From an uncultured bacterium (GTDB taxonomy: Bacteria; Babelota; Babeliae; Babelales; Babelaceae), in assembly GCA_963717435.1 (NCBI GenBank), contig OY970332.1:896001-960000 (forward strand): DNA of 64,000 nucleotides. The letters are read 5' to 3'. Below are positions 43,891 to 54,183 of this stretch, one piece after another (the first letter of the stretch is position 1; each line of letters begins with the position of its first letter). Made by a program: the position numbers and the translations under genes. The notes under the pieces are model-generated. The model was not told the DNA's origin. It ran no database searches and saw only the letters and a list, made by a program, of their open reading frames with translations.

Positions 43891-44121
43891 GGCCAGAATT
43901 TTCCGGCCCTTAAAAAACTATTTTTTAATTTTTTATTTCGTATCTAAATTCACATGGCCGTTCTTAAAAGTCCGCCCCCGCATCCTGCCCATGTGCCGGG
44001 TAGCCCCAAAAACAGGTTAAAATACCCACCCCATGCCCCCCCGGGGCGGTTGCAATATATGACAAATTGTATAATATTTAATATATTATAATGCAATATA
44101 ATTCAAATAATGGAGTATTTT

Positions 44122-44706
44122 ATGAAAAAATTGTTACTTTTTGCCCCTTTGATGCTATTAGCAGGCTGTGCCGGCTATAAATCACGCCCTTTAAAGACTT
44201 TGCATCCCGAACCTTTAAAAACGCATAAAGATATCCATTTTGCTGCTAAAGCGTACGATAGAATGGATTCAGAAACTTATCTTGGTAGAGATACTATTAA
44301 GGCAGGGTATAGACCTATACAAATAGCCATCAAAAACAAATCTTATCGAACTCTTAATTTTTCATTAAACACAATTAATATGCCAATAGTTCCTGTAGAT
44401 GTTGTTGCTAGAAGTGTTTATCAATCAGTTGAAGCACGGGCCTTGGGGTATGGAATTCCTGCCTTATTTGTTTTTACTATTCCACTTTTAATTCCTGCTG
44501 TTACCGATTCAATCTGGGCATATCAAGCAAATGAGCAATTATTATCTGACTACACTGATAAATCAATTTTTACTTCAATACTTAAACCTGATTCGTTTAC
44601 GCAGGGACTTATTTTTGTTGCAAATTCCAATTATGAAAATCAGTTAAGTTTTACACTGATCGATAGAGATACTCAGGAAAAAATAGTTTGTAAAACTGAT
44701 TTATAA
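44122..44706 (+). CDS. Lipoprotein of unknown function
   Basis: GGAG RBS, MKKLLLFAPLMLLAGC lipobox, internal hydrophobic segment. Confidence 0.8.
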   Translation: MKKLLLFAPLMLLAGCAGYKSRPLKTLHPEPLKTHKDIHFAAKAYDRMDSETYLGRDTIKAGYRPIQIAIKNKSYRTLNFSLNTINMPIVPVDVVARSVYQSVEARALGYGIPALFVFTIPLLIPAVTDSIWAYQANEQLLSDYTDKSIFTSILKPDSFTQGLIFVANSNYENQLSFTLIDRDTQEKIVCKTDL

Positions 44707-44737: not shown

Positions 44738-45205
44738 ATGAAAAATAAATACTTTGTTTATATACTTCTTTTTATCTCTTTATTGGGATTGTCTGGATGT
44801 GGGATTCGCCAAAAGAGCTGGCTATCCAATCTTTCTTCTGGAATGAACAAGAAGCAAGTTAAATCCAAAATGGGCCAGCCTGATTTCGTTCATACTCCTA
44901 CCACAAATATTAAAGGCGAAACTATTGATATTTGGGAATATGAACTTGCTACAACTGATGAAAATCAATGGAGTAAGCAGTTTGCCGCCTCTTTTTCTCT
45001 TACCTTAATGTCTTTAACCCTTGGTTTTATTCCAGGATTTCCGCGTGAGCTTTATGCGTTAACTATACCTATATCATATGCCCCACTTATTTTTATGGAT
45101 TCCCCTTATGACTACAATACTTATTTCCTTAAGTTTGTTAACGACTTTCTTTCTAAATGGGGAAGTGCTTCTGATGTTGGATTAGATAAGAAATTTATAT
45201 CTTAA
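44738..45205 (+). CDS. SmpA/OmlA(BamE)-like lipoprotein with a hydrophobic insertion
   Basis: LSGC lipobox; LSSGMNKKQVKSKMGQP...IWEY...LKFVNDFLSKWG. Confidence 0.65.
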   Translation: MKNKYFVYILLFISLLGLSGCGIRQKSWLSNLSSGMNKKQVKSKMGQPDFVHTPTTNIKGETIDIWEYELATTDENQWSKQFAASFSLTLMSLTLGFIPGFPRELYALTIPISYAPLIFMDSPYDYNTYFLKFVNDFLSKWGSASDVGLDKKFIS

Positions 45206-45217
45206 TTTGGGGGTGCT

Positions 45218-46726
45218 ATGTTTTCTAATAAATTTATTTTTAATCATCTAGTAGTTTATTTATGTCTTTTGGTCAGCCCAAGCATCATTGCAGATGGTTC
45301 AACTCGTTCTACGTCTGCGTATATTTCTAAGTGGACGCAACCATCTCATGGAGGGTTTGTTACAATTCGCAAAAAGCAACCCTTATCTATTTACGCAGCT
45401 ATATCATTTAATAACAATCCAGATAATGAATTGATTGAAAAATATCTTTTGTTTTTAAGGCCAAAAATGGCAAATCTTGGAATTAAAATTGATAAAACAC
45501 CACATAACCCATTTAGCTTTGTCATAAAAAATGGCAAAATTTCTAAATCCGACATAATCACAATTATTTATGAAGCTAACCACCACTTTGACCCAAATTT
45601 TAAAACTCCAGCAGAGCTGGCAGCTCAAAATGCTAAAGAAAGAGCTGAAAGAGATGTGCTTCAGGAACAACTTAGGGAAGCTGAGATAAAGCGTAAAGCT
45701 GAAGAGCTAAGATTGAGACTTGAAAATGAGGCGAGATTAAGAAAGTTAGCGATTGAAGCTGAAGAAGCACTAATGAAAAGGATGGCGCAGGAGGAAAGAG
45801 AAAGAGTACAAAAACTTCAAATTGAGTATAAAGAATGGGAAAAAATTAATAACAGCAAAATTGGAAAATATCATGTTAGAGCTCTTCCTATAGATATGTA
45901 TACATCTACAAATAAGCCTTTAAGTGAAAATGGCCAGATATGCGGTGAACTAATTTATCATGATAAGAGCTATAATTATGAAAAGGCAGTAATTTGGGAT
46001 CCTATTCACGGATTAAAAATATTTGCAAAAGAACAAAGTACTGCTGGTGGAATAAATGACTTTGGTTTTGTAGCGGTTAACTTAAAAGCAGATTATCATC
46101 GTAACCAAATAATTCTTTGGGACACAAAGTCAGATAAATTAATATTTGGTCCATTCGGCCAGTCAATTTCATTTAACAATAAAAACCAAATTTTATTTGA
46201 AAATGATAAAATTTGGAATTCCAGCAACAATACCATTAATTCACTTAACACTCGCTCAAAGTATATAGATGATAATGGAAGCGCTCTTTTATCAAGTCAT
46301 TCGATGAATTATATAGATATCAACAAGAAAGGTGCTGCCATAAATTTTTCTTCTATGGGTTTATATATTAATACAGGAAATTATATGGCCCCATTAGTAA
46401 TCCCAGAAGGTGGGGTTGTTTTCGAAGCAAAAATTAATAATAACAACGAAGTTGCAACAATATACAAGAACAGATTGATTATTTGGGATAACAAACAAAA
46501 GATAACAGCCCATGATTCTTTAGAGGATATCATAAAATGGGTCGAAGGCTATGAATTGAGAAATGGGCTTAAGGGATCTGAATATTTTAGTAAGCTTGAA
46601 GATTGGAAGGCTCATAATTTAAATTTTGAAGTTCTAGCTTTCAATTGCGCAAGGCAAATTCTAATTAGGCTCAAAATAACTTCATTTAAAAATAAGCAAT
46701 TCCTATTTTTATTGTCCCCAAAATAA
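45218..46726 (+). CDS. Secreted protein with a coiled coil and HAF-like extracellular beta repeats
   Basis: Signal peptide; E/R/K-rich coil; repeated GINDFGFVA / SFNNKNQIL / DINKKG / KINNNNEVA / AFNCARQIL units. Confidence 0.6.
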   Translation: MFSNKFIFNHLVVYLCLLVSPSIIADGSTRSTSAYISKWTQPSHGGFVTIRKKQPLSIYAAISFNNNPDNELIEKYLLFLRPKMANLGIKIDKTPHNPFSFVIKNGKISKSDIITIIYEANHHFDPNFKTPAELAAQNAKERAERDVLQEQLREAEIKRKAEELRLRLENEARLRKLAIEAEEALMKRMAQEERERVQKLQIEYKEWEKINNSKIGKYHVRALPIDMYTSTNKPLSENGQICGELIYHDKSYNYEKAVIWDPIHGLKIFAKEQSTAGGINDFGFVAVNLKADYHRNQIILWDTKSDKLIFGPFGQSISFNNKNQILFENDKIWNSSNNTINSLNTRSKYIDDNGSALLSSHSMNYIDINKKGAAINFSSMGLYINTGNYMAPLVIPEGGVVFEAKINNNNEVATIYKNRLIIWDNKQKITAHDSLEDIIKWVEGYELRNGLKGSEYFSKLEDWKAHNLNFEVLAFNCARQILIRLKITSFKNKQFLFLLSPK

Positions 46727-46930
46727 TTTTGATTGTGAATGGTTAGAAAAAATCTAACTATTCATCCTCTTTATTTGCTGTTAATACCACCATGTCTGTC
46801 GGTGGTATTTTACTTTTTGTATATTTTCTTAGGGTCAAAAAATAGTTTGTTAAGATGTTATAATTCATGGGAATTTATCTTATAATATATAGGCTCCTAG
46901 TTGAGACTTATATTATATACGAGGTTTTTT

Positions 46931-47827
46931 ATGAATGTTTTTATTGATGAATCAGGCAAGTTTCGCGCGCCAGAAAATATTTCCAGCCAACCTAATTACG
47001 AATGTATTATTGCAATTATATTGAGTAATGATGCCCTAATAAAATTTGAAGAAAAATTTGGAGAAAAAAGTAAGCTTTGTTTGCGTCTTAATGCAAGGGA
47101 CGTTATTAAGTTTATCGAGGAAAACGGTTGTAGAGCATTTGCTGTTATATACGATTCCAATCTATCTTCAAAAAACACTATTGAAGAACATAAAAAAGAC
47201 TATATAAGATCTATATATAAATCATCTGCAAATCATCCATTTTTTTTACAAGAAACTGTTAAACATCATGCTGAAAAATTATCTAAATTTAGCCCAAATG
47301 AATATATTAAAGCTTTATTATCGATTAAATTATTAGAAAATGTGTTGAGAGCTGTCATAGGAAACTCTACAGAGTTTTTGAAATATGATCTAAAGAAATT
47401 CGAATTTGTGTGCGATTCAGGAAATTGCAATATCGAATCAACGATCAAGTATTTCAGTTTGTTTTCTATGTTTTGTAATTCTGCAAATAACCCTATTTGC
47501 TTTGATAATAGGGAAAATATTCAGCATTTGATAGATCCATCAGGCAAGTATCTTGACGCCAGGTTGATTTTTGAAAATATTAATTTTGTTTCATCAGGGG
47601 ATGTCGCAGGTGTTAGGGCAGTAGATGTTGTTTCTAACCAGCTGTTCAGAATTTTGCATGAAGAATCAGTTGATTATGATATAGAAAGATGGAAAAATAT
47701 ATTTTCCAATCCTTATAGTTTTGATTTTTTATCTTTTGATAAAGATCAGGAATTTATAGATAGCGAAATCGGAGAAAAGGCGTTTGTTTTCCCTAAATTA
47801 TTAGGCAAAATTAATAACCTTGTATAA
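46931..47827 (+). CDS. DUF3800-like (RNase H-fold) protein
   Basis: N-terminal VFIDESG, central FVCD, C-terminal F.SS...GVRAVDVVSN (variant of QxADxxA); GAGG before ATG 46931. Confidence 0.65.
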   Translation: MNVFIDESGKFRAPENISSQPNYECIIAIILSNDALIKFEEKFGEKSKLCLRLNARDVIKFIEENGCRAFAVIYDSNLSSKNTIEEHKKDYIRSIYKSSANHPFFLQETVKHHAEKLSKFSPNEYIKALLSIKLLENVLRAVIGNSTEFLKYDLKKFEFVCDSGNCNIESTIKYFSLFSMFCNSANNPICFDNRENIQHLIDPSGKYLDARLIFENINFVSSGDVAGVRAVDVVSNQLFRILHEESVDYDIERWKNIFSNPYSFDFLSFDKDQEFIDSEIGEKAFVFPKLLGKINNLV

Positions 47828-47928
47828 ATTTTATAGACCCATCTTTTGTCCCGTTTCTTCAAATCATATTTAATTTTACATTACTCTTGTTTGTAATATA
47901 ATAACCCAGATTAATTTAGGGATGAATC

Positions 47929-49827
47929 ATGGGAAAATTATTAATTACAACAATTGGCTCGGGCTTGTTTTTTCTTGGTTTATTTGGGCATGATAGCAAT
48001 AATGTAAATGCTAGATTTACCAATGAGTTTGCGCATCCTAAAATTTTAAAGTTTGAAAATAATCACCATCTTTATGATTTCAATAAAGAATTAAAAAAAG
48101 AGGGTTTATATTACCCTAAAAATAATATTACTTATAATAATCCTGCATTAAATGTTTTTTATAATCCTAGTGATTGCTGGAATTGGCAAGAAAATGATTA
48201 TTGGAACGCTTTGCTGATATTATTTGGTAAAGAATATTCAATAGGTCAGAGAGCAAATTTGCCTCAAGAATATAAGATTTTTTGTACAACAGCCACCCAT
48301 AATTATTATATTCATGATAATGATCGACAGTCTTTATTTAACCAACCAGAATTATACAATTTCCCAGCTTTCTGGGATTTTATTAAAAAATTTCCCGATT
48401 ACCCATCTTGCATTTATAAAGTTAAAGAACTAGTTGATTTTAATCCTAAAATCAAAAATAGATTTTCTAATAAAGCTTTAGACGAAATTAACAGAGAATA
48501 TTCGAGAATAAAAGGCTTTGAAGAACAGCACCAACAGTTAATAAATAATGCGAAAAACAGAGAAGTTTTTCAGCGGCGAGTAGATTCCGTTTTTCAGAGT
48601 CAGTTTGATGATTGCGTAAAAAAAGAAGAAGAGTACAAAGAGCTTAATAGTTTGTATCGGGAATATAATCTTGGAGATTGTGCAAGAATCCAAAGACGCA
48701 TAGATGCAATAGATAATATTAAAGAAACTGGATCAAAATATATTGATAAAAGCTATAATCTGGCCCCTAATCTTCTTGGCTATTTAAGCAATAATAATAT
48801 TAATTCTGAAAAATATGGCACATGTTATGGTAATCAACTTCAACACGTTATTCACCAAGAATGTGTTGATATTCTTAATAATAGCTTTTCTTTGAGCCCA
48901 CAATCTTATGCATTTGGTTATAAGAGCCCAATAATTACATTCGCTGATGCTGCTTGTGATTATAACAAAATGGGATTAACCTCTAGGGCCATGGATATAA
49001 CAGATGCCTGTTGGGCTTTTTTTGATTATGGCAAAGCCATTTTTGAGGGCGTTTCTGAGGGTCTAATTAGCGCCGCGAAAGATTTGATTGACCACCCGAT
49101 TCAAGCCGGGTTATGTGTTGTTGCGGGAGAATATGTTTTTGCTTATCAGTTATCAAAATTAATTTATAATGTTGCCGAAATTGGTATTACGTCTTTAGTA
49201 GACAAACGGGCTGGCGCCCAAAAATGGCAAGAATATGTCGCGCCACTTTCGCAACTGATCGATGCGGTGCAAAATAAGCAAATAAGCTTGCGGCATGGAA
49301 TCAAGGGCGTAACGCGTACCGTTGTTGAGTGGAAGACGCAAGACAAGCTTCTTGGTGGATTGAGTGGGTTCCTTAGGACCACAAAAAAGAAGGCGATAGA
49401 TTTCTTCAAAGATAATCCACTTGCAACACCTGAACAGTATGTGACGACCCCTGATGGAATGTTATTTAGGTCGACTGACAAGCTCAATTCTAAAAGGAAC
49501 TCAAGTCTTGATAAAATTACGGAAAAGGTATCTAAGAAAAGTCTTCTTAAGAAGCATCAGCTACCCATTAAGGGAAGAATTCGCTATGTTCCACCTAAAG
49601 ATTTACATGCCAATAAGGGATTGCCATGTAAAAGATTAGACAATAACGGAATTGGCTTCGTTGATCGTTTTGATAATGTTTGGGTAAAGGGTGTTAGTCG
49701 AACCAAGGGTCAGGCTTTCGAGTGGGATGTTCAGCTTTCAAATCAGGGCAGGCAGAAACTTGGATGGATGAGTCGTGATGGCGAACATATTAATGTAAGT
49801 TTAGACGGAAGGATAACTCATAAATGA
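47929..49827 (+). CDS. Polymorphic toxin with a signal peptide and a C-terminal Ntox17-like (predicted RNase) domain
   Basis: C-terminus LPIKGRIRYVPP...GFVDRFDNVWVKG.SRTKGQAFEWDVQLS...DGEHINVSLDGRITHK, with the ExD and His of Ntox17. Confidence 0.8.
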   Translation: MGKLLITTIGSGLFFLGLFGHDSNNVNARFTNEFAHPKILKFENNHHLYDFNKELKKEGLYYPKNNITYNNPALNVFYNPSDCWNWQENDYWNALLILFGKEYSIGQRANLPQEYKIFCTTATHNYYIHDNDRQSLFNQPELYNFPAFWDFIKKFPDYPSCIYKVKELVDFNPKIKNRFSNKALDEINREYSRIKGFEEQHQQLINNAKNREVFQRRVDSVFQSQFDDCVKKEEEYKELNSLYREYNLGDCARIQRRIDAIDNIKETGSKYIDKSYNLAPNLLGYLSNNNINSEKYGTCYGNQLQHVIHQECVDILNNSFSLSPQSYAFGYKSPIITFADAACDYNKMGLTSRAMDITDACWAFFDYGKAIFEGVSEGLISAAKDLIDHPIQAGLCVVAGEYVFAYQLSKLIYNVAEIGITSLVDKRAGAQKWQEYVAPLSQLIDAVQNKQISLRHGIKGVTRTVVEWKTQDKLLGGLSGFLRTTKKKAIDFFKDNPLATPEQYVTTPDGMLFRSTDKLNSKRNSSLDKITEKVSKKSLLKKHQLPIKGRIRYVPPKDLHANKGLPCKRLDNNGIGFVDRFDNVWVKGVSRTKGQAFEWDVQLSNQGRQKLGWMSRDGEHINVSLDGRITHK

Positions 49828-50210
49828 ATCTCCCAGCTTGTTTTTTAATTGAATGCATTATTACAGATGGCAAAAATATTTCTAATGAATTATTTGAACA
49901 ATTAAAAGAACTTATCGAAAAGCGTTTTGACAAATCAGATGTAAAAATAACATCGTTGAATAAGTATTGGAAATATCCCGATACTAAGCAGATTATTTTT
50001 GAGGTAAGAGCAAAAAATTTTATATCTGTAGAAGAGTTTACTAAATTATTTAATATAACGTGGAAGCATTCTAAATTGCCCGTAAGCAATTATGACACAA
50101 AGAAAACAGTGGACCAAGAAAGTGCTGTGTGGAATAGAAATATGTATCCTGAAGAAACATTTTTGAACAGCGATGTAGAATGGGTCCATGTTTATTCATG
50201 GCTAGATTGA
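49824..50210 (+). CDS. Putative cognate immunity protein
   Basis: 128 aa, ATGA overlap with the toxin stop codon, no signal peptide. Confidence 0.7.
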   Translation: MNLPACFLIECIITDGKNISNELFEQLKELIEKRFDKSDVKITSLNKYWKYPDTKQIIFEVRAKNFISVEEFTKLFNITWKHSKLPVSNYDTKKTVDQESAVWNRNMYPEETFLNSDVEWVHVYSWLD

Positions 50211-50243
50211 AATTCTGCCTCGAATAAATTTGAAAAAAATAAG
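50209..50243 (+). repeat. Right direct repeat (attR-like), overlapping the immunity-gene stop codon
   Basis: 35-bp copy of 43854-43890. Confidence 0.85.
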
Positions 50244-50256
50244 TGGGTACAAATTT

Positions 50257-51318
50257 TTATTTACTATCTAAACCCACAACAATAACAGAAATATTATCAC
50301 CGCTTTGGTTGGCAAAAGCGGCGTCGCGCAGGGCAGCTGCTGCGTCCAGGGCATTTTGTGAGTTGCCCGCGTTGTCAGATTTTTCAGAACCGAAATCTGG
50401 TTTGTGTGTTATATTAATTACGTTATCTTTTTTATCAAACTTTTCTGAAACAATTTTGGCCGCTTTTTCGTTATCTATAACATCCCAAACGCCGTCGCAT
50501 GCGATAATTAAATATTTGTGATCGTGAGTAAGTTTAATCGTGTGAATTTCAGGTATTCCTGATACCGCTCCGCCGTCAATTATTTTCCCCGCGCTGTTTG
50601 GTTGCTTAAATAAAAAATCTCCAAACGCACGTGAAACTGCAAGCAATGTGCTTACTCCCGGGATATAAATTCTTGGAACATCTTCTTCTTCACAAACAAC
50701 TTTGCCCCCATTTTTTTCAATACGTTCAGTTTCTTCAAGATTTATGGGCTTATGATCCCGCGATTCCCAATCAATATTATTATTTTTATCAACTAAGATT
50801 GCGCGTGAGTCGCCAAGCCAAGCGACAGTCAAGATTTTGTGGCCAGTTTTGTCTATTTCTATGTGGCCTACAACAGCTGTTGAACCCATGCTATCTGCAT
50901 AAGATTTTGTTTTTAGATCATCTTCTATGCGTGCAAAAGTTTTTAAGAATATTTGATCAGTTCTAGTTAATTTTTTTGTTTCCTGAGATTTTTCTGATTT
51001 TTCTATCTGATGATGATCTGCCTCATGATGTACAACAAATTTGTTGAATTCAAAATGCTCTATAAATTTTTCTTGGGCATATTCGGCAACCTTTTTGCCC
51101 CCGTGTCCATCAAAAATGCCAAACAAAAATTCGTTATTTGTTTTTTCCATAGGATGCGCGACAATATGCGTATCTTCCATAGTTATACGTCTTCCCTGAC
51201 GTGCGCTTAGACCCCAAGCAAATCTGTGTGCAGTTGTTTTATATTCACCAGATAATCCAGGCGCTATAAATACTAAACTTAGAAAAATAGTAAAAAGCCT
51301 AACTGATTGGTTTTTCAT
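50257..51318 (-). CDS. Eukaryote-like PP2C (PPM) Ser/Thr phosphatase with a signal peptide
   Basis: QGRRITMEDTH, FGIFDGHGG, GSTA, LGDSR, DHKP..E..RI...GG, LAVSRAFGD, ACDGVWD, DNISVIVV. Confidence 0.93.
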   Translation of the reverse strand: MKNQSVRLFTIFLSLVFIAPGLSGEYKTTAHRFAWGLSARQGRRITMEDTHIVAHPMEKTNNEFLFGIFDGHGGKKVAEYAQEKFIEHFEFNKFVVHHEADHHQIEKSEKSQETKKLTRTDQIFLKTFARIEDDLKTKSYADSMGSTAVVGHIEIDKTGHKILTVAWLGDSRAILVDKNNNIDWESRDHKPINLEETERIEKNGGKVVCEEEDVPRIYIPGVSTLLAVSRAFGDFLFKQPNSAGKIIDGGAVSGIPEIHTIKLTHDHKYLIIACDGVWDVIDNEKAAKIVSEKFDKKDNVINITHKPDFGSEKSDNAGNSQNALDAAAALRDAAFANQSGDNISVIVVGLDSK

Positions 51319-51518
51319 GAAAAAATCTTAAAGATTAAATTTTAATTTACCGGGATCGATAATATAAAAAAGCTGCGTGTTTATCAAGACTTGTATTTAA
51401 GCGTTTTTTATTTGTGGGCAGTAACTAATTAGTCGGGTTGTTTACAAGCCGAACTTGAATTGGGTAGGGTGTTTATGTTGAGTTGTGTATTATTAAAAAT
51501 AGGGGAGAGCGTGTGTGT

Positions 51519-52223
51519 ATGGATTTTTTAAAAAATCTTATAACTAAGCTGATTTTTGCGTTGAATTTAGTCTCTGTTTCACAAATTGCAGGGGCAGTTT
51601 ATGAATCGGGCAGGAATGGCGGGAACGGGCGTGAGATTACTGAAAAAAATGCCTCGGCGCAGGCTTTGCAGGCCATAAAGAACGAAAATATGTCTCTTCT
51701 TGCAGATTTAGTAAAATATTATAAAAAACAGGGTATCGATATTAACGAGCCAGTTGATGTGTTGGGTAGAAAATATGATCTTTTGGGAGCAGCGATTTCC
51801 TGGGGAAAAGTGAAAGCTGCTAAATTCTTGTTAAGTAATGGGGCGAAATTGAAAGACGAATTTGAAATTAAATCTGTCAAAACAGCGCCGCTTATTTATA
51901 CCAAATCTATGGCTGAACTTTTGATACCTCGAGGGGTTATCGTACCGAAAATTAAAGATGTAATAGATAAGATGCGTGCGGATTCTCTTACAAAAATGCT
52001 TGATGTTAAAGAAACCGGATTAGCTTTGATAAAGTTTTTGGTAGGTCACGGTGCAGAGTTTGATCGTACCGTGATAAATAGTATTAATGCCGCTATTCAA
52101 GATTTGATTGCCGATGAAAATCATGTTTTTGTTAACAACAGTAAACATTTTCAAGAAGATTATAGCGCAGAATTCAAGGCGATAAAAAAATATCTTGATG
52201 AAAAACTAAAAAATCGCAACTAA
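51519..52223 (+). CDS. Secreted degenerate ankyrin-repeat protein
   Basis: LLGAAISWGKVKAAKFLLSNGA; LIKFLVGHGA; signal-like leader. Confidence 0.65.
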   Translation: MDFLKNLITKLIFALNLVSVSQIAGAVYESGRNGGNGREITEKNASAQALQAIKNENMSLLADLVKYYKKQGIDINEPVDVLGRKYDLLGAAISWGKVKAAKFLLSNGAKLKDEFEIKSVKTAPLIYTKSMAELLIPRGVIVPKIKDVIDKMRADSLTKMLDVKETGLALIKFLVGHGAEFDRTVINSINAAIQDLIADENHVFVNNSKHFQEDYSAEFKAIKKYLDEKLKNRN

Positions 52224-52324: not shown

Positions 52325-53257
52325 TTACGCTATAATACACAGTTCGCGAAGTTTCTTTATTACGTCTTGCTCAAGTTCCTCCCAGATTGCGCCCTTTTTA
52401 ATTAAATATTGTACAACATTAGATTTGATATCGATGTTGCCAAATTGGTCATGTGTTGCATAATATAATGGCTTTAAACCATATGCGTTTAATGCATTTA
52501 TATCAGCTTGATATTGTTTTAATAATTTGCACATATAAAAGTCATTGTTATATGCTGCAATATGCATTAAATATTGAGTGTTGCCGTATTTGTGATTTAC
52601 CATATCTAAATTTGGATTAGCTTGCCTGTTGCATTTTAAAATTTTAAAAGCCTGTCTTTTATTTTTAAATACTACCGCCCAATAAAGTTTGTCGCTTTCT
52701 GAAATTTTTTCACTAAGGTATAAAGCTATTTCAAGTTGCACAATAACTTTCTGGCTTAGAATTTTCCAGTCCGCTCCATTTGCTATCAAAAACAAAGCAA
52801 CTTCGAACTTTATTTTCATATTGTCGAATTTATCATGCGTTGCATAATATAGTGGCGTATGCCCCAAACGGTTTTTTACATTCAAATCTGCGCCATATTG
52901 TTTTAACAATGCGCACATGTTTAAATCACCGTTGTTTGCTGCTATATGAATCAAAGACAGGCCATTGCAATACACGCGATTTACCAAATTAAGCCCGGGT
53001 TTTTCCTGTATAGACGATTCTATTGTTGAACGAGCAGCTTCGACGTTTTTTAGCACAACATGGACATAAATTTTCTCATGATCATACAGATATTGATATG
53101 TGTCGGGGTCTTTCACGACCCTTCTTGCATCATTTTTGGTTGTAATTCCCAGAGTATCTTTTCTAAAGTTAGGGATAAAATTTTGCCCACCTGCTTGTAA
53201 GCTAAGTGCAGTAATTGTGATTGCTATAACTAATTTTGCTAATAATTTTTTCTGCAT
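52325..53257 (-). CDS. Secreted ankyrin-repeat protein (internally duplicated), C-terminal CaaX (CIIA)
   Basis: Two homologous halves: HIAA.N.D..MC.LLKQY.AD.N..N..G..PLYYATHD.F; ends ELCIIA*. Confidence 0.88.
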   Translation of the reverse strand: MQKKLLAKLVIAITITALSLQAGGQNFIPNFRKDTLGITTKNDARRVVKDPDTYQYLYDHEKIYVHVVLKNVEAARSTIESSIQEKPGLNLVNRVYCNGLSLIHIAANNGDLNMCALLKQYGADLNVKNRLGHTPLYYATHDKFDNMKIKFEVALFLIANGADWKILSQKVIVQLEIALYLSEKISESDKLYWAVVFKNKRQAFKILKCNRQANPNLDMVNHKYGNTQYLMHIAAYNNDFYMCKLLKQYQADINALNAYGLKPLYYATHDQFGNIDIKSNVVQYLIKKGAIWEELEQDVIKKLRELCIIA

Positions 53258-53355: not shown

Positions 53356-54183
53356 TTATATTATCAAGCAGTCGTCAGCATCCGGCTCTTCAGGATTGGG
53401 CTGATTTTGCGAGTTTTGGGGATTTTTATTCTTGTCTTGTATTAATAATAATTTTTTTAGATTTTCTAGTTTTTTTATCTCGGGTTCTGTTGATTGGTTC
53501 GATATTGCGCCCTTTTGGATTAGTATTGTTAGAATTTTTAGTTGTTCCTGTGGGATATTAGCTTGTTGATTATTGCTAAAATTAATTGCGCTTAAAAATA
53601 GATCAAGTGGTGTTTGCCTAGAGCTGTTTTGCTGATTTATTTTAACTTCTGGGTTATAAATAAATATTCTTGCAAGATCATACAAAGAGAAACTCAATGC
53701 TATATGCAAAGGGGTATTTTTGTCATGCTCGGTGCTATTTATCTTTGCATTATAGGCAATTAACATATTGATAATATTGTTGTCTCCCGAATAGTTTTCC
53801 ATGGCAGAAAATATTGCAGTCTCGTTGTTATTGTCAGTAATATTTGGATCAGCACCATGTCGCAACAAAATTTCAACAGCTGCAAAATTGTTTCTTAGGC
53901 ATGCAAGATGCAAAGCTGTTTTTCCATCGCGATTTTTTATATTTATATATTTCGGCTGCGAAGCTAATGTTTCAAGCATATGCGCGTTACCATGCATAAC
54001 AGCAAGATGTATCGCCTGATTCCCGTTATAAGATTTTACTAGAGAGATTGAGTCAAGATCGCCATCTGACAAATCTTGAGAGTCCATAGATAAAATTTTA
54101 GTTTGAAAATTTGAGATAAAAATAAAAGTTAAAAGAAATCTTAATTTGTTTTTAAAACAAATTCTACAAATTGTGTCCCCCAT
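53356..54183 (-). CDS. Ankyrin-repeat protein, C-terminal CaaX (CLII)
   Basis: GNQAIHLAV, GKTALHLAC...LLRHGADPN, TPLHIA; disordered tail ending DDCLII*. Confidence 0.88.
   Translation of the reverse strand: MGDTICRICFKNKLRFLLTFIFISNFQTKILSMDSQDLSDGDLDSISLVKSYNGNQAIHLAVMHGNAHMLETLASQPKYINIKNRDGKTALHLACLRNNFAAVEILLRHGADPNITDNNNETAIFSAMENYSGDNNIINMLIAYNAKINSTEHDKNTPLHIALSFSLYDLARIFIYNPEVKINQQNSSRQTPLDLFLSAINFSNNQQANIPQEQLKILTILIQKGAISNQSTEPEIKKLENLKKLLLIQDKNKNPQNSQNQPNPEEPDADDCLII

Follow-up and report, generated by a model that had tools for sequence, protein, structure and literature searches.

What does a long leader-bearing protein do for its bearer when its last hundred residues look like a toxin and a small gene overlaps its stop codon? 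This question is raised by a stretch of 64,000 nucleotides (the window) from an uncultured bacterium of the Babelaceae (assembly GCA_963717435.1, contig OY970332.1, positions 896,001 to 960,000), in which a 632-residue protein, P0001, is followed by a 128-residue protein, P0002. We consider it likely that the two represent a Sec-exported, MafB- or bacteriocin-like polymorphic nuclease toxin and its immunity protein, built on an undescribed Dependentiae scaffold. A preliminary description of this DNA had proposed a lineage-specific polymorphic toxin scaffold, and this proposal is supported by the variety of the tips, the spread of the scaffold and the tip-matched downstream genes. The elements on which the argument turns are the following.

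47929..49827, forward strand: predicted polymorphic toxin gene (P0001), 632 amino acids (aa), ATG start
49824..50210, forward strand: putative cognate immunity gene (P0002), 128 aa, ATG start
48136..49473, forward strand: family-defining scaffold, residues about 60/70-515, delimited by alignments and an AlphaFold2 model
49414..49458, forward strand: pre-toxin junction motif NPLATPEQYVTTPDG, residues 496-510, candidate recombination boundary
49546..49821, forward strand: Ntox17 toxin tip, residues 540-631, Pfam PF15524

The C-terminal tip, described earlier as Ntox17-like, matches PF15524 over profile positions 7-98 of 98 (E 6.5e-29; 100.5 bits against a gathering cut-off of 25). E598-W-D600 (ExD), H620, N622 and H631 are invariant in the 9 Ntox17-bearing members of the family and in 5 loci, and a conserved ExD motif with a histidine is the Ntox17 signature given in the table of Zhang et al. 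2012. The other motifs quoted in the preliminary description are equally present in the P0001 translation, namely GFVDRFDNVW, EWDVQLS, HINVSLDG, AIFEGVSEGL...HPIQAGLCVVAG (about residues 370-400) and ATPEQYVTTPDG (499-510).

Homologues of the N-terminus carry many other ends. Past the junction, 90 tails of 60-260 aa fall into 23 unrelated BLAST clusters, with Ntox17 accounting for 9 tails. Pfam searches of 20 cluster representatives returned Ntox21 (1.5e-24), EndoU (4.6e-9, plus one weak match), a Cytotoxic domain of the colicin-E3 type (2.1e-6), a barnase-type Ribonuclease (2.1e-11) and a weak DUF4258, and no toxin-type Pfam family in 14 of the 20. When 78 members were scanned at E<=1, the tips were DUF4258 in 9, Ntox17 in 7, EndoU in 5, Ntox35 in 3, Cytotoxic in 2, and Ntox21 and Ribonuclease in 1 each, such that at least seven Pfam toxin families are found behind one kind of N-terminus. 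Exchange is visible even between close relatives: 67 pairs (73 members) share at least 60% identity over the last 250 scaffold residues, many of them with unrelated tails. For P0044 and P0045, identity is 95% in the scaffold vs 27% in the tail; the values are 86% vs 22% for P0005 and P0006, 86% vs 24% for P0015 and P0042, and 68% vs 29% for P0001 and its closest relative, P0003. Similarity drops a few residues past TPEGxLxK in 6 of 7 inspected pairs and about 35 residues further on in the seventh. What had been noted as a TPE/TPDG linker ahead of the tip is a conserved junction motif of the family, with the consensus NPLxTPxxYxxTPEG, also expressed as P-[EQ]-x-Y-x-x-T-P-[ED]-G. As read from these sequence comparisons, the tips are swapped as cassettes at the junction motif, and a conserved scaffold with exchangeable tips is a polymorphic toxin system in the sense of Zhang et al. 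2012.

The scaffold itself is widespread. A search with residues 1-520 returned 28 other proteins. Candidatus Babeliales is given as the source of two, and the precomputed Pfam domains at their C-termini are not the same. Among 1.84 billion representatives, phmmer recovered 388 proteins at E<=1e-3, 215 at <=1e-10 and 107 at <=1e-30. In a survey of the phylum with one genome per species (E<=1e-5), the scaffold occurs in 97 of 261 genomes, in 71 of the 189 high-quality genomes and in 64 of 145 genera. Across 185,579 species, each represented by one genome, a pattern scan that reaches close relatives only gave 14 loci, and all but one of those that bear a taxon name belong to Candidatus Dependentiae or Babeliales. 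These name-bearing relatives agree with the earlier claim of a lineage-specific N-terminus, and the searches support the P0001 scaffold as a large, previously undescribed family whose taxon-named members are Dependentiae (Babeliales). The exception among the named loci is a scaffold homologue on a 4,994-base-pair (bp) contig of a metagenome-assembled genome labelled Pseudomonadota (L044); it may be mis-binned or a rare occurrence outside the Dependentiae.

The spread is patchy, with the scaffold in 6 of 40 genomes of the taxonomic family to which the window belongs vs 43 of 80 and 12 of 14 in two others. The Ntox17 tip and its immunity gene were not found in the other 40 genomes of the window's own taxonomic family, and one other family (80 genomes) has the scaffold in 43, the tip in 7 and the immunity gene in 7. 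The rarity of the pair in its own family and its greater frequency in another suggest that it may have reached this genome by horizontal transfer. Some relatives are built differently. P0095 (2093 aa) has a pre-toxin HINT domain (PF07591, E 7e-7, above the cut-off) at 42-169 and the scaffold core at 1758-2059, and the N-terminal extensions of other long relatives (1,021-1,443 aa) mostly match no Pfam family. Three full-length scaffold genes stand in tandem at G231:C1:1009552-1016656 (L046), with different tails and their own downstream genes; diversification there is by whole-gene duplication and not by orphan cassettes.

The downstream gene is tied to the tip first by its position. The 632-aa open reading frame with an ATGA-coupled 128-aa gene, as drawn in the preliminary description, is borne out by the coordinates and by the sequence at the overlap, where the P0001 stop and the P0002 start share 4 bases (ATGA) in the context ...CAT AAA TGA, with the second ATG inside AAATGA. 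GGAAGGA lies a few bases 5' of the P0002 start, and we infer that the two genes are transcribed as a coupled bicistron in which P0002 is translationally coupled. A small bicistronic arrangement of toxin and inhibitor is also the layout of chromosomal toxin-antitoxin modules, which would act in addiction or stress inside the producer only, and Babela encodes HicAB and MNT-HEPN pairs (text of PMC4378268). Yet a conserved, leader-bearing N-terminus of about 520 aa is not typical of such toxins, and the gene order, the swapping of tips at a fixed junction and the orphan tip fragments described below are traits of polymorphic toxins; we regard a toxin-antitoxin module as extremely improbable here.

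Reading the pair as polymorphic toxin and immunity protein, we compared tails with downstream genes across loci. The 17 unique toxin-plus-downstream pairs from related genomes give 136 pairings, in which 14 share both tail and downstream class, 1 shares the tail only, none shares the downstream class only and 121 share neither. In each of the 5 unique Ntox17 loci the toxin is followed by a P0002 homologue (124-136 aa, 24-37% identity, 4-base overlap). In the phylum survey the Ntox17 tip occurs in 15 of 261 genomes and the immunity family in 11, all of which are among the 15. In one tip-bearing genome (G106), a divergent member of the P0002 family abuts the toxin (E 4.6e-13 against the family profile), and another genome (G089) has a weak, divergent Ntox17 tip near a contig end.

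A structural prediction points the same way. Residues 520-632 of P0001 were co-folded with P0002, each chain with its own alignment, and the interface score ipSAE was 0.84 (0.83, 0.84 and 0.85 in the runs), compared with 0.01 for the best of 3 controls; the mark of 0.84 is reached by 58 of 80 solved complexes and by 2 of 110 mismatched pairs, a calibration that is rough for user-supplied alignments. Contacts agreed in at least 93% between runs, and the predicted local distance difference test (pLDDT) of the partner was at least 88. Because neither chain has a sequence relative in the PDB (searches with the toxin profile gave noise only, best E 0.19, and those with the P0002 profile gave nothing), recall of a solved complex is unlikely. 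The predicted interface joins residues 562-569 and 587-597 together with D600, H620, N622 and H631 of the tip to residues 48-51 (including YWK), 85-91, 102-104 and 119-124 of P0002, and this model supports binding of P0002 over the conserved ExD/His residues. Co-variation with the tip and the co-fold both support P0002 as the cognate immunity protein of the Ntox17 tip, the role of partner in which it had been cast beforehand.

The P0002 family is small, with 15 members in 5.8 billion clusters, one of them named Candidatus Babeliales. Its conserved residues are YWK (48-50), W80, E99, W103, W120 and Y124. For P0002, Pfam had nothing above noise and, at E<=1, no Imm family, and NCBIfam had no family either; PHROGs and PADLOC gave nothing relevant, the ESM Atlas gave unnamed clusters only, and all 15 of the family members are without precomputed Pfam domains. 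In Zhang et al. 2012, the immunity protein named as usual for Ntox17 is Imm31. As P0002 has no Pfam Imm match, its assignment to Imm31 was ruled out, and on the available comparisons the P0002 family is a new immunity family for Ntox17.

The part of P0001 before the junction has two further features of interest.

47929..47988, forward strand: signal-peptide-like leader, residues 1-20, MGK followed by the hydrophobic LLITTIGSGLFFLGLFG
48979..49272, forward strand: most conserved core, with Gly/Ala-rich amphipathic helices, residues 351-448

An AlphaFold2 model of P0001, built from 83 sequences, has a mean pLDDT of 76.7 and a predicted template modelling score of 0.63. In this model, the leader region forms a helix (2-20), and the scaffold consists of an alpha/beta subdomain (72-176), a 66-residue helix (181-246) and further helices or a bundle to 495. 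Confidence is mostly at least 93 for residues 70-370, below 50 for 374-399, 56-77 for 400-500 and 80-88 for the tip. In the alignment, a conserved core spans approximately residues 270-515. Neither G374 nor G378 varies among 78 sequences, A370 is nearly invariant, E373 is invariant in 29 sequences, and P390 and Y406 are also conserved. The invariant EGxxxG stretch (374-399) falls in the part of low model confidence. The Gly/Ala amphipathic segment that had been noted is present, and since internal hydropathy peaks at 1.17 (residue 394), it is amphipathic and no classical transmembrane helix.

Searches for a known relative of the scaffold agree with the earlier statement that it has no recognisable trafficking domain. 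RHS, PAAR, VgrG, LXG, WXG, TPS and MuF were all missing from P0001 in Pfam at E<=1, and a WXG100 match (E 0.0053) appeared in 1 of 29 members. The P0001 search gave no scaffold family in Pfam, NCBIfam, PHROGs or PADLOC, and neither the Pfam scans of 78 members nor the fold searches gave a trafficking domain. With the full model, which includes the alpha/beta subdomain (covered within these full-model searches only), Foldseek against the PDB returned nothing at E<=1e-3 (best E 0.055, a designed helical repeat; colicin B at E 0.18 only), BFVD nothing at E<=1e-3 (best 9e-3, tape-measure-like), and VIA-align wide a best Z of 6.2, under the noise level for helical proteins. All ESM Atlas scores of P0001 were below 0.9, including a MafB cluster at 0.85 and a PT-TG cluster at 0.83 (37% of members); the Pfam scans of the 78 members lend these look-alikes no support, and they were set aside. 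A PHROG match of P0001 to RNA polymerase beta (E 0.0016) was taken as noise, and a P22_gp7 Pfam match is weak (E 0.011) and limited to 2 of the 78 members.

It is tentatively possible, if somewhat unlikely, that the helical scaffold, notably the EGxxxG helices before the TPEG junction, is a new self-contained cell-entry device that works without a contact-dependent machine. If true, such a scaffold would let a toxin that has only Sec and type II secretion at its disposal pass through the envelope of other bacteria, or through a membrane of the host.

The genome of the window is consistent with export of this kind. Its secretion inventory was taken on a single contig of 1,198,203 bp with an estimated completeness of 88.8%. 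Two secretin genes lie 5 kb apart and a T2SSE-type ATPase is present; TssC, VirB4 and FHIPEP, as markers of type VI, type IV and type III secretion, gave no match, and ShlB (TpsB) gave a match below the cut-off only. A further T2SSE-type ATPase region, outside the window at G000:C1:297436-298582, is matched in several segments, the longest of which contains 4 TGA, 1 TAG and 3 TAA stops in frame; this region may be a decayed secretion or pilus ATPase gene. Comparable inventories have been published for the phylum: two gspD copies in all TM6 genomes (text of PMC4776705), a type II secretion system (T2SS) as the only secretion system of Babela (text of PMC4378268), and, for Chromulinavorax, vesicles together with a Sec system, 44% of the coding sequences having a signal peptide (text of PMC6561590). 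As for P0001, the signal-peptide-like leader that had been proposed is seen by Kyte-Doolittle hydropathy (19-aa windows, >=1.2), and residues 1-22 are the sole region of the protein with such windows. A similar N-terminal hydrophobic stretch is found in 63 of 83 family members.

After Sec export the protein could also remain attached to its producer as a surface-anchored, contact-dependent weapon, held by a hydrophobic helix or a partner on the envelope, with the long helix presenting the tip. This would be a variant of delivery within the same explanation, and surface anchoring has been proposed for lineage-specific N-domains in section 37 of Zhang et al. 2012. The 66-residue helix of the model and the MafB cluster among the language-model look-alikes, the latter a lead only, are consistent with it. 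P0001 is, however, without a lipobox, because its leader has no Cys, there is no MafB Pfam match at E<=1, and no upstream gene that could act as a partner is conserved across the toxin loci inspected, as only two closely related loci share upstream genes. We judge anchoring to be unlikely.

The preliminary description had left the target open as bacteria or host. The first half of that alternative gains from the relatives, in which orphan modules and surplus immunity genes lean towards bacteria. Downstream of one toxin in G241 lie an immunity gene, a 34-aa piece that matches the end of that toxin's tip at 91% identity, and another three immunity paralogues; two immunity genes accompany a second toxin of this genome. 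In G199, besides one intact toxin, there is a tip that is frameshifted, has no scaffold and is paired with an immunity gene, and three additional immunity genes are present; an immunity gene also stands alone in this genome. G256 and G249 carry truncated tips with immunity genes and no scaffold nearby. Since surplus immunity genes make sense only against an incoming toxin, and since immunity genes outnumber toxins in relatives, which also contain orphan tip fragments, the targets are most likely other bacteria, and the toxin is probably used between bacteria.

The second half of the alternative would make P0001 a host-directed effector: the amphipathic helices would cross the host vacuole or plasma membrane, the RNase tip would attack protist RNA, and P0002 would protect the producer before export in the manner of barstar and barnase. 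The exchange of many tip types, each with a matched immunity gene, does not fit such an effector, nor do the surplus and orphan immunity genes of the relatives, which help only against an incoming toxin. Stand-alone proteins composed of a leader and Ntox17, with no P0002-type immunity nearby, suggest that export alone needs none, and adjacent immunity genes in amoeba symbionts are the criterion by which Zhang et al. 2012 tell inter-bacterial from anti-host use. On the other side, Dependentiae are obligate protist parasites with Sec and T2SS as sole export and many secreted nucleases, as far as the texts of PMC6561590 and PMC4378268 describe them; the attribute of an intracellular protist parasite, used in the preliminary description, likewise comes from the literature on the phylum and not from this genome. 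Residues 323-526 resemble the alpha-pore-forming toxins YaxB (Z 5.5) and Hbl-B (Z 5.4), at noise level. The neighbours of the pair are a leader-bearing PP2C and three ankyrin-repeat genes, and no orphan tips or orphan immunity genes were found in the window's own genome, which holds one toxin and one immunity gene. On balance, a host-directed effector appears quite improbable.

The effector-like neighbours and the lack of orphans in the window's own genome weigh against an inter-bacterial polymorphic toxin, as do a number of other points. The activity of the tip is a first concern. The RNase activity of Ntox17 is a prediction: the domain stands under 'Predicted metal-independent RNase toxins' in the table of Zhang et al. 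2012, and no Ntox17 activity assay was found in the portions of the literature searched on this domain. A 2025 review (PMC12288458) groups NTox_17 with predicted pore-forming effectors of type VI secretion, which speaks against a firm assignment of RNase activity. The tip-only model has a pLDDT of 67.7, and the best of 48,161 chains matched to it was the CdiA C-terminal toxin (CdiA-CT) of E. cloacae (4ntq_A; Z 4.0, root-mean-square deviation 3.0, 58 aligned residues); the nuclease of colicin E3 ranked sixth (Z 2.6). This fold match is weak, given a Z of 4.0 on a model of that confidence; Foldseek on the tip model found nothing, and hhalign of Ntox17 against the Ntox21 members of the family gave a probability of 0.07%. 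A CdiA-CT-like fold would nonetheless fit, weakly, with the RNase block of the 2012 table.

The leader, the pairing and the expression of the locus add to these concerns. The signal-peptide call rests on a crude hydropathy criterion, which is failed by 20 of 83 members, some with visibly mis-called or truncated starts. Counts of co-variation overstate the number of events because related genomes are not independent, and the loci L003 and L004 have a tail cluster in common with different downstream genes. Two short proteins of 124 and 134 aa, in G086 (L065 1519-1893) and G087 (L066 1785-2189), consist of a leader and Ntox17 with no scaffold and no P0002-like reading frame in the fetched flanks; apparently, Ntox17 can be exported here without the P0002 immunity family. 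No RNA sequencing run is listed with the locus, and two soil-metagenome DNA runs contain 0.20 and 0.05 of its sampled words.

If the pair is a Sec-exported polymorphic toxin with its immunity protein, its action may be pictured as follows. P0002, which has no signal peptide, would neutralise the tip in the cytoplasm of the producer. The toxin would be exported by Sec and would then leave the cell via type II secretion with the secretins, or via vesicles; all steps past Sec export we infer. The scaffold would bind a target cell, the Gly/Ala-rich amphipathic helices may help the tip to pass the membrane of that cell, a step that may involve cleavage close to the junction, and the tip would kill as a metal-independent RNase. 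The most likely targets would be other bacteria in the same protist host.

Expression of the pair may start from a site directly upstream of the toxin gene.

47875..47902, forward strand: promoter-like site TTTACA-16 nt-TATAAT, matching 11 of 12 consensus positions and ending 27 bp 5' of the toxin ATG

It is the top-scoring promoter-like site in 46600-50600, and AGGGA lies just 5' of the toxin ATG. The assignment is suggestive only, because the 23 promoter-like sites in this interval are not above shuffles (18.9 +/- 5.1). The local GC content of 0.345 is unremarkable.

The surroundings of the pair in the window hold several secreted-looking genes. Convergent to it, at 50257-51318 on the reverse strand, is a PP2C protein phosphatase (PF00481, E 8.6e-50) with the signal-peptide-like N-terminus MKNQSVRLFTIFLSLVFIAPGLSG, likely a secreted eukaryote-type phosphatase and host-directed effector. 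Three consecutive ankyrin-repeat genes follow at 51483-52223 (forward), 52325-53257 (reverse) and 53356-54183 (reverse), with Ank_2 matches of E 3.2e-19 and 7.1e-28, a weak match in the first gene and hydrophobic N-termini in at least two; they appear to form an effector-like island adjoining the toxin pair. On the other side, two small proteins with lipobox-like leaders (LLAGC and LSGC; 44110-44706 and 44738-45205, forward) precede a 502-aa protein that combines a leader with a charged coiled-coil stretch (45218-46726, forward), and these three reading frames match no Pfam family and were not found upstream of other family members. The gene directly upstream of the toxin (46901-47827, forward) has a weak DUF3800 match (E 4.8e-6) and no PADLOC or PHROG family, and it is not conserved beside the toxin in other genomes.

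The polymorphic toxins known so far come mainly from bacteria that live freely or on host surfaces and that use dedicated machines for delivery. Zhang et al. 2012 remark that immunity genes are missing from most intracellular bacteria, which would thus not seem to compete with one another. Here, a scaffold with dozens of kinds of tip occurs, along with immunity genes that match the tips and with orphan modules, in a phylum of reduced parasites (about 1 Mb) with only Sec and T2SS. No description of polymorphic toxins in Dependentiae was found in the literature searched, although supplementary tables of the genome papers might list the genes as hypothetical; the word 'toxin' is absent from the main text of PMC6561590 and PMC4776705, and the text of PMC4378268 has HicAB and MNT-HEPN only. 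The scaffold family, its junction motif and the Ntox17 immunity family are new to this work. If our interpretation is true, obligate parasites of about 1 Mb would possess a bacteriocin-like arsenal against co-infecting relatives inside protists, and rivalry of co-infecting parasites within a protist cell would be strong enough to keep it in minimal genomes. The scaffold would then be a candidate for a new protein-translocation module, and the approximately 14 tail classes without a recognisable domain are candidates for new toxin folds.

Among known systems, P0001 resembles, on an unrelated scaffold, MafB of Neisseria (MAFB-N/DUF1020, PF06255; immunity MafI), which has a signal peptide, a lineage-restricted N-domain, a variable nuclease-type tip and an immunity gene downstream, and Ntox17 is listed among MafB-borne tips in the table of Zhang et al. 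2012. The comparison was made through the Pfam model PF06255: no match was found in P0001 (E<=1) or in 20 representatives (E<=0.05), and PF06255 lies outside the 25 most frequent of the 91 families found in 78 members. The scaffold family differs from MafB in having no conserved MafA-like lipoprotein gene upstream, in its junction motif, in its phylum and in an immunity protein that is not Imm31. APD1 and APD2 of Amoebophilus asiaticus and Microscilla-N share with P0001 an N-domain after a signal peptide, polymorphic C-termini and Sec/T2SS export, and their hosts are protist-associated or Bacteroidetes bacteria. In contrast, APD proteins have a lipobox, eukaryote-directed tips of the ubiquitin system and no immunity genes (Zhang et al. 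2012, section 37), whereas the recognisable Dependentiae tips are nucleases with matched immunity genes, a distinction from APD that is drawn by description only.

Other likenesses concern single parts. CdiA and Rhs toxins (with VENN or PxxxxDPxGL junctions) resemble the scaffold family in a short motif at the boundary of tip exchange and in orphan tip and immunity arrays downstream. However, the family is without TPS, FHA-repeat, RHS and PAAR, P0001 has only 632 aa, and this genome has neither a TpsB match over the cut-off nor a type VI secretion sheath. In colicin E3 and the CdiA-CT of E. cloacae (Ntox21; 4ntq, 4v5k), an uptake part with long helices stands N-terminal to an RNase, and the gene downstream encodes an immunity protein that binds the nuclease; other members of the scaffold family bear true Cytotoxic/ColE3 and Ntox21 tips, but the match of the tip fold to these proteins is under any confident threshold. 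Colicins are not known to have a signal peptide. S8-Ntox35 of Staphylococcus aureus is a diffusible, secreted polymorphic RNase toxin in which an amphipathic helix before the tip aids entry, as outlined in mBio 2026 (PMC13556192). The Dependentiae scaffold likewise bears Ntox35 tips in 3 of 78 members, but the S. aureus system has a BetaH pre-toxin domain and a dedicated S8 peptidase, and no peptidase gene is conserved beside the Dependentiae toxin loci. Because section 37 of Zhang et al. 2012 describes Sec/T2SS toxins with a lineage-specific domain past the leader (MAFB-N, Microscilla-N and APD1/2) and predicts more of them, the P0001 family can be regarded as a new instance of a principle already described.

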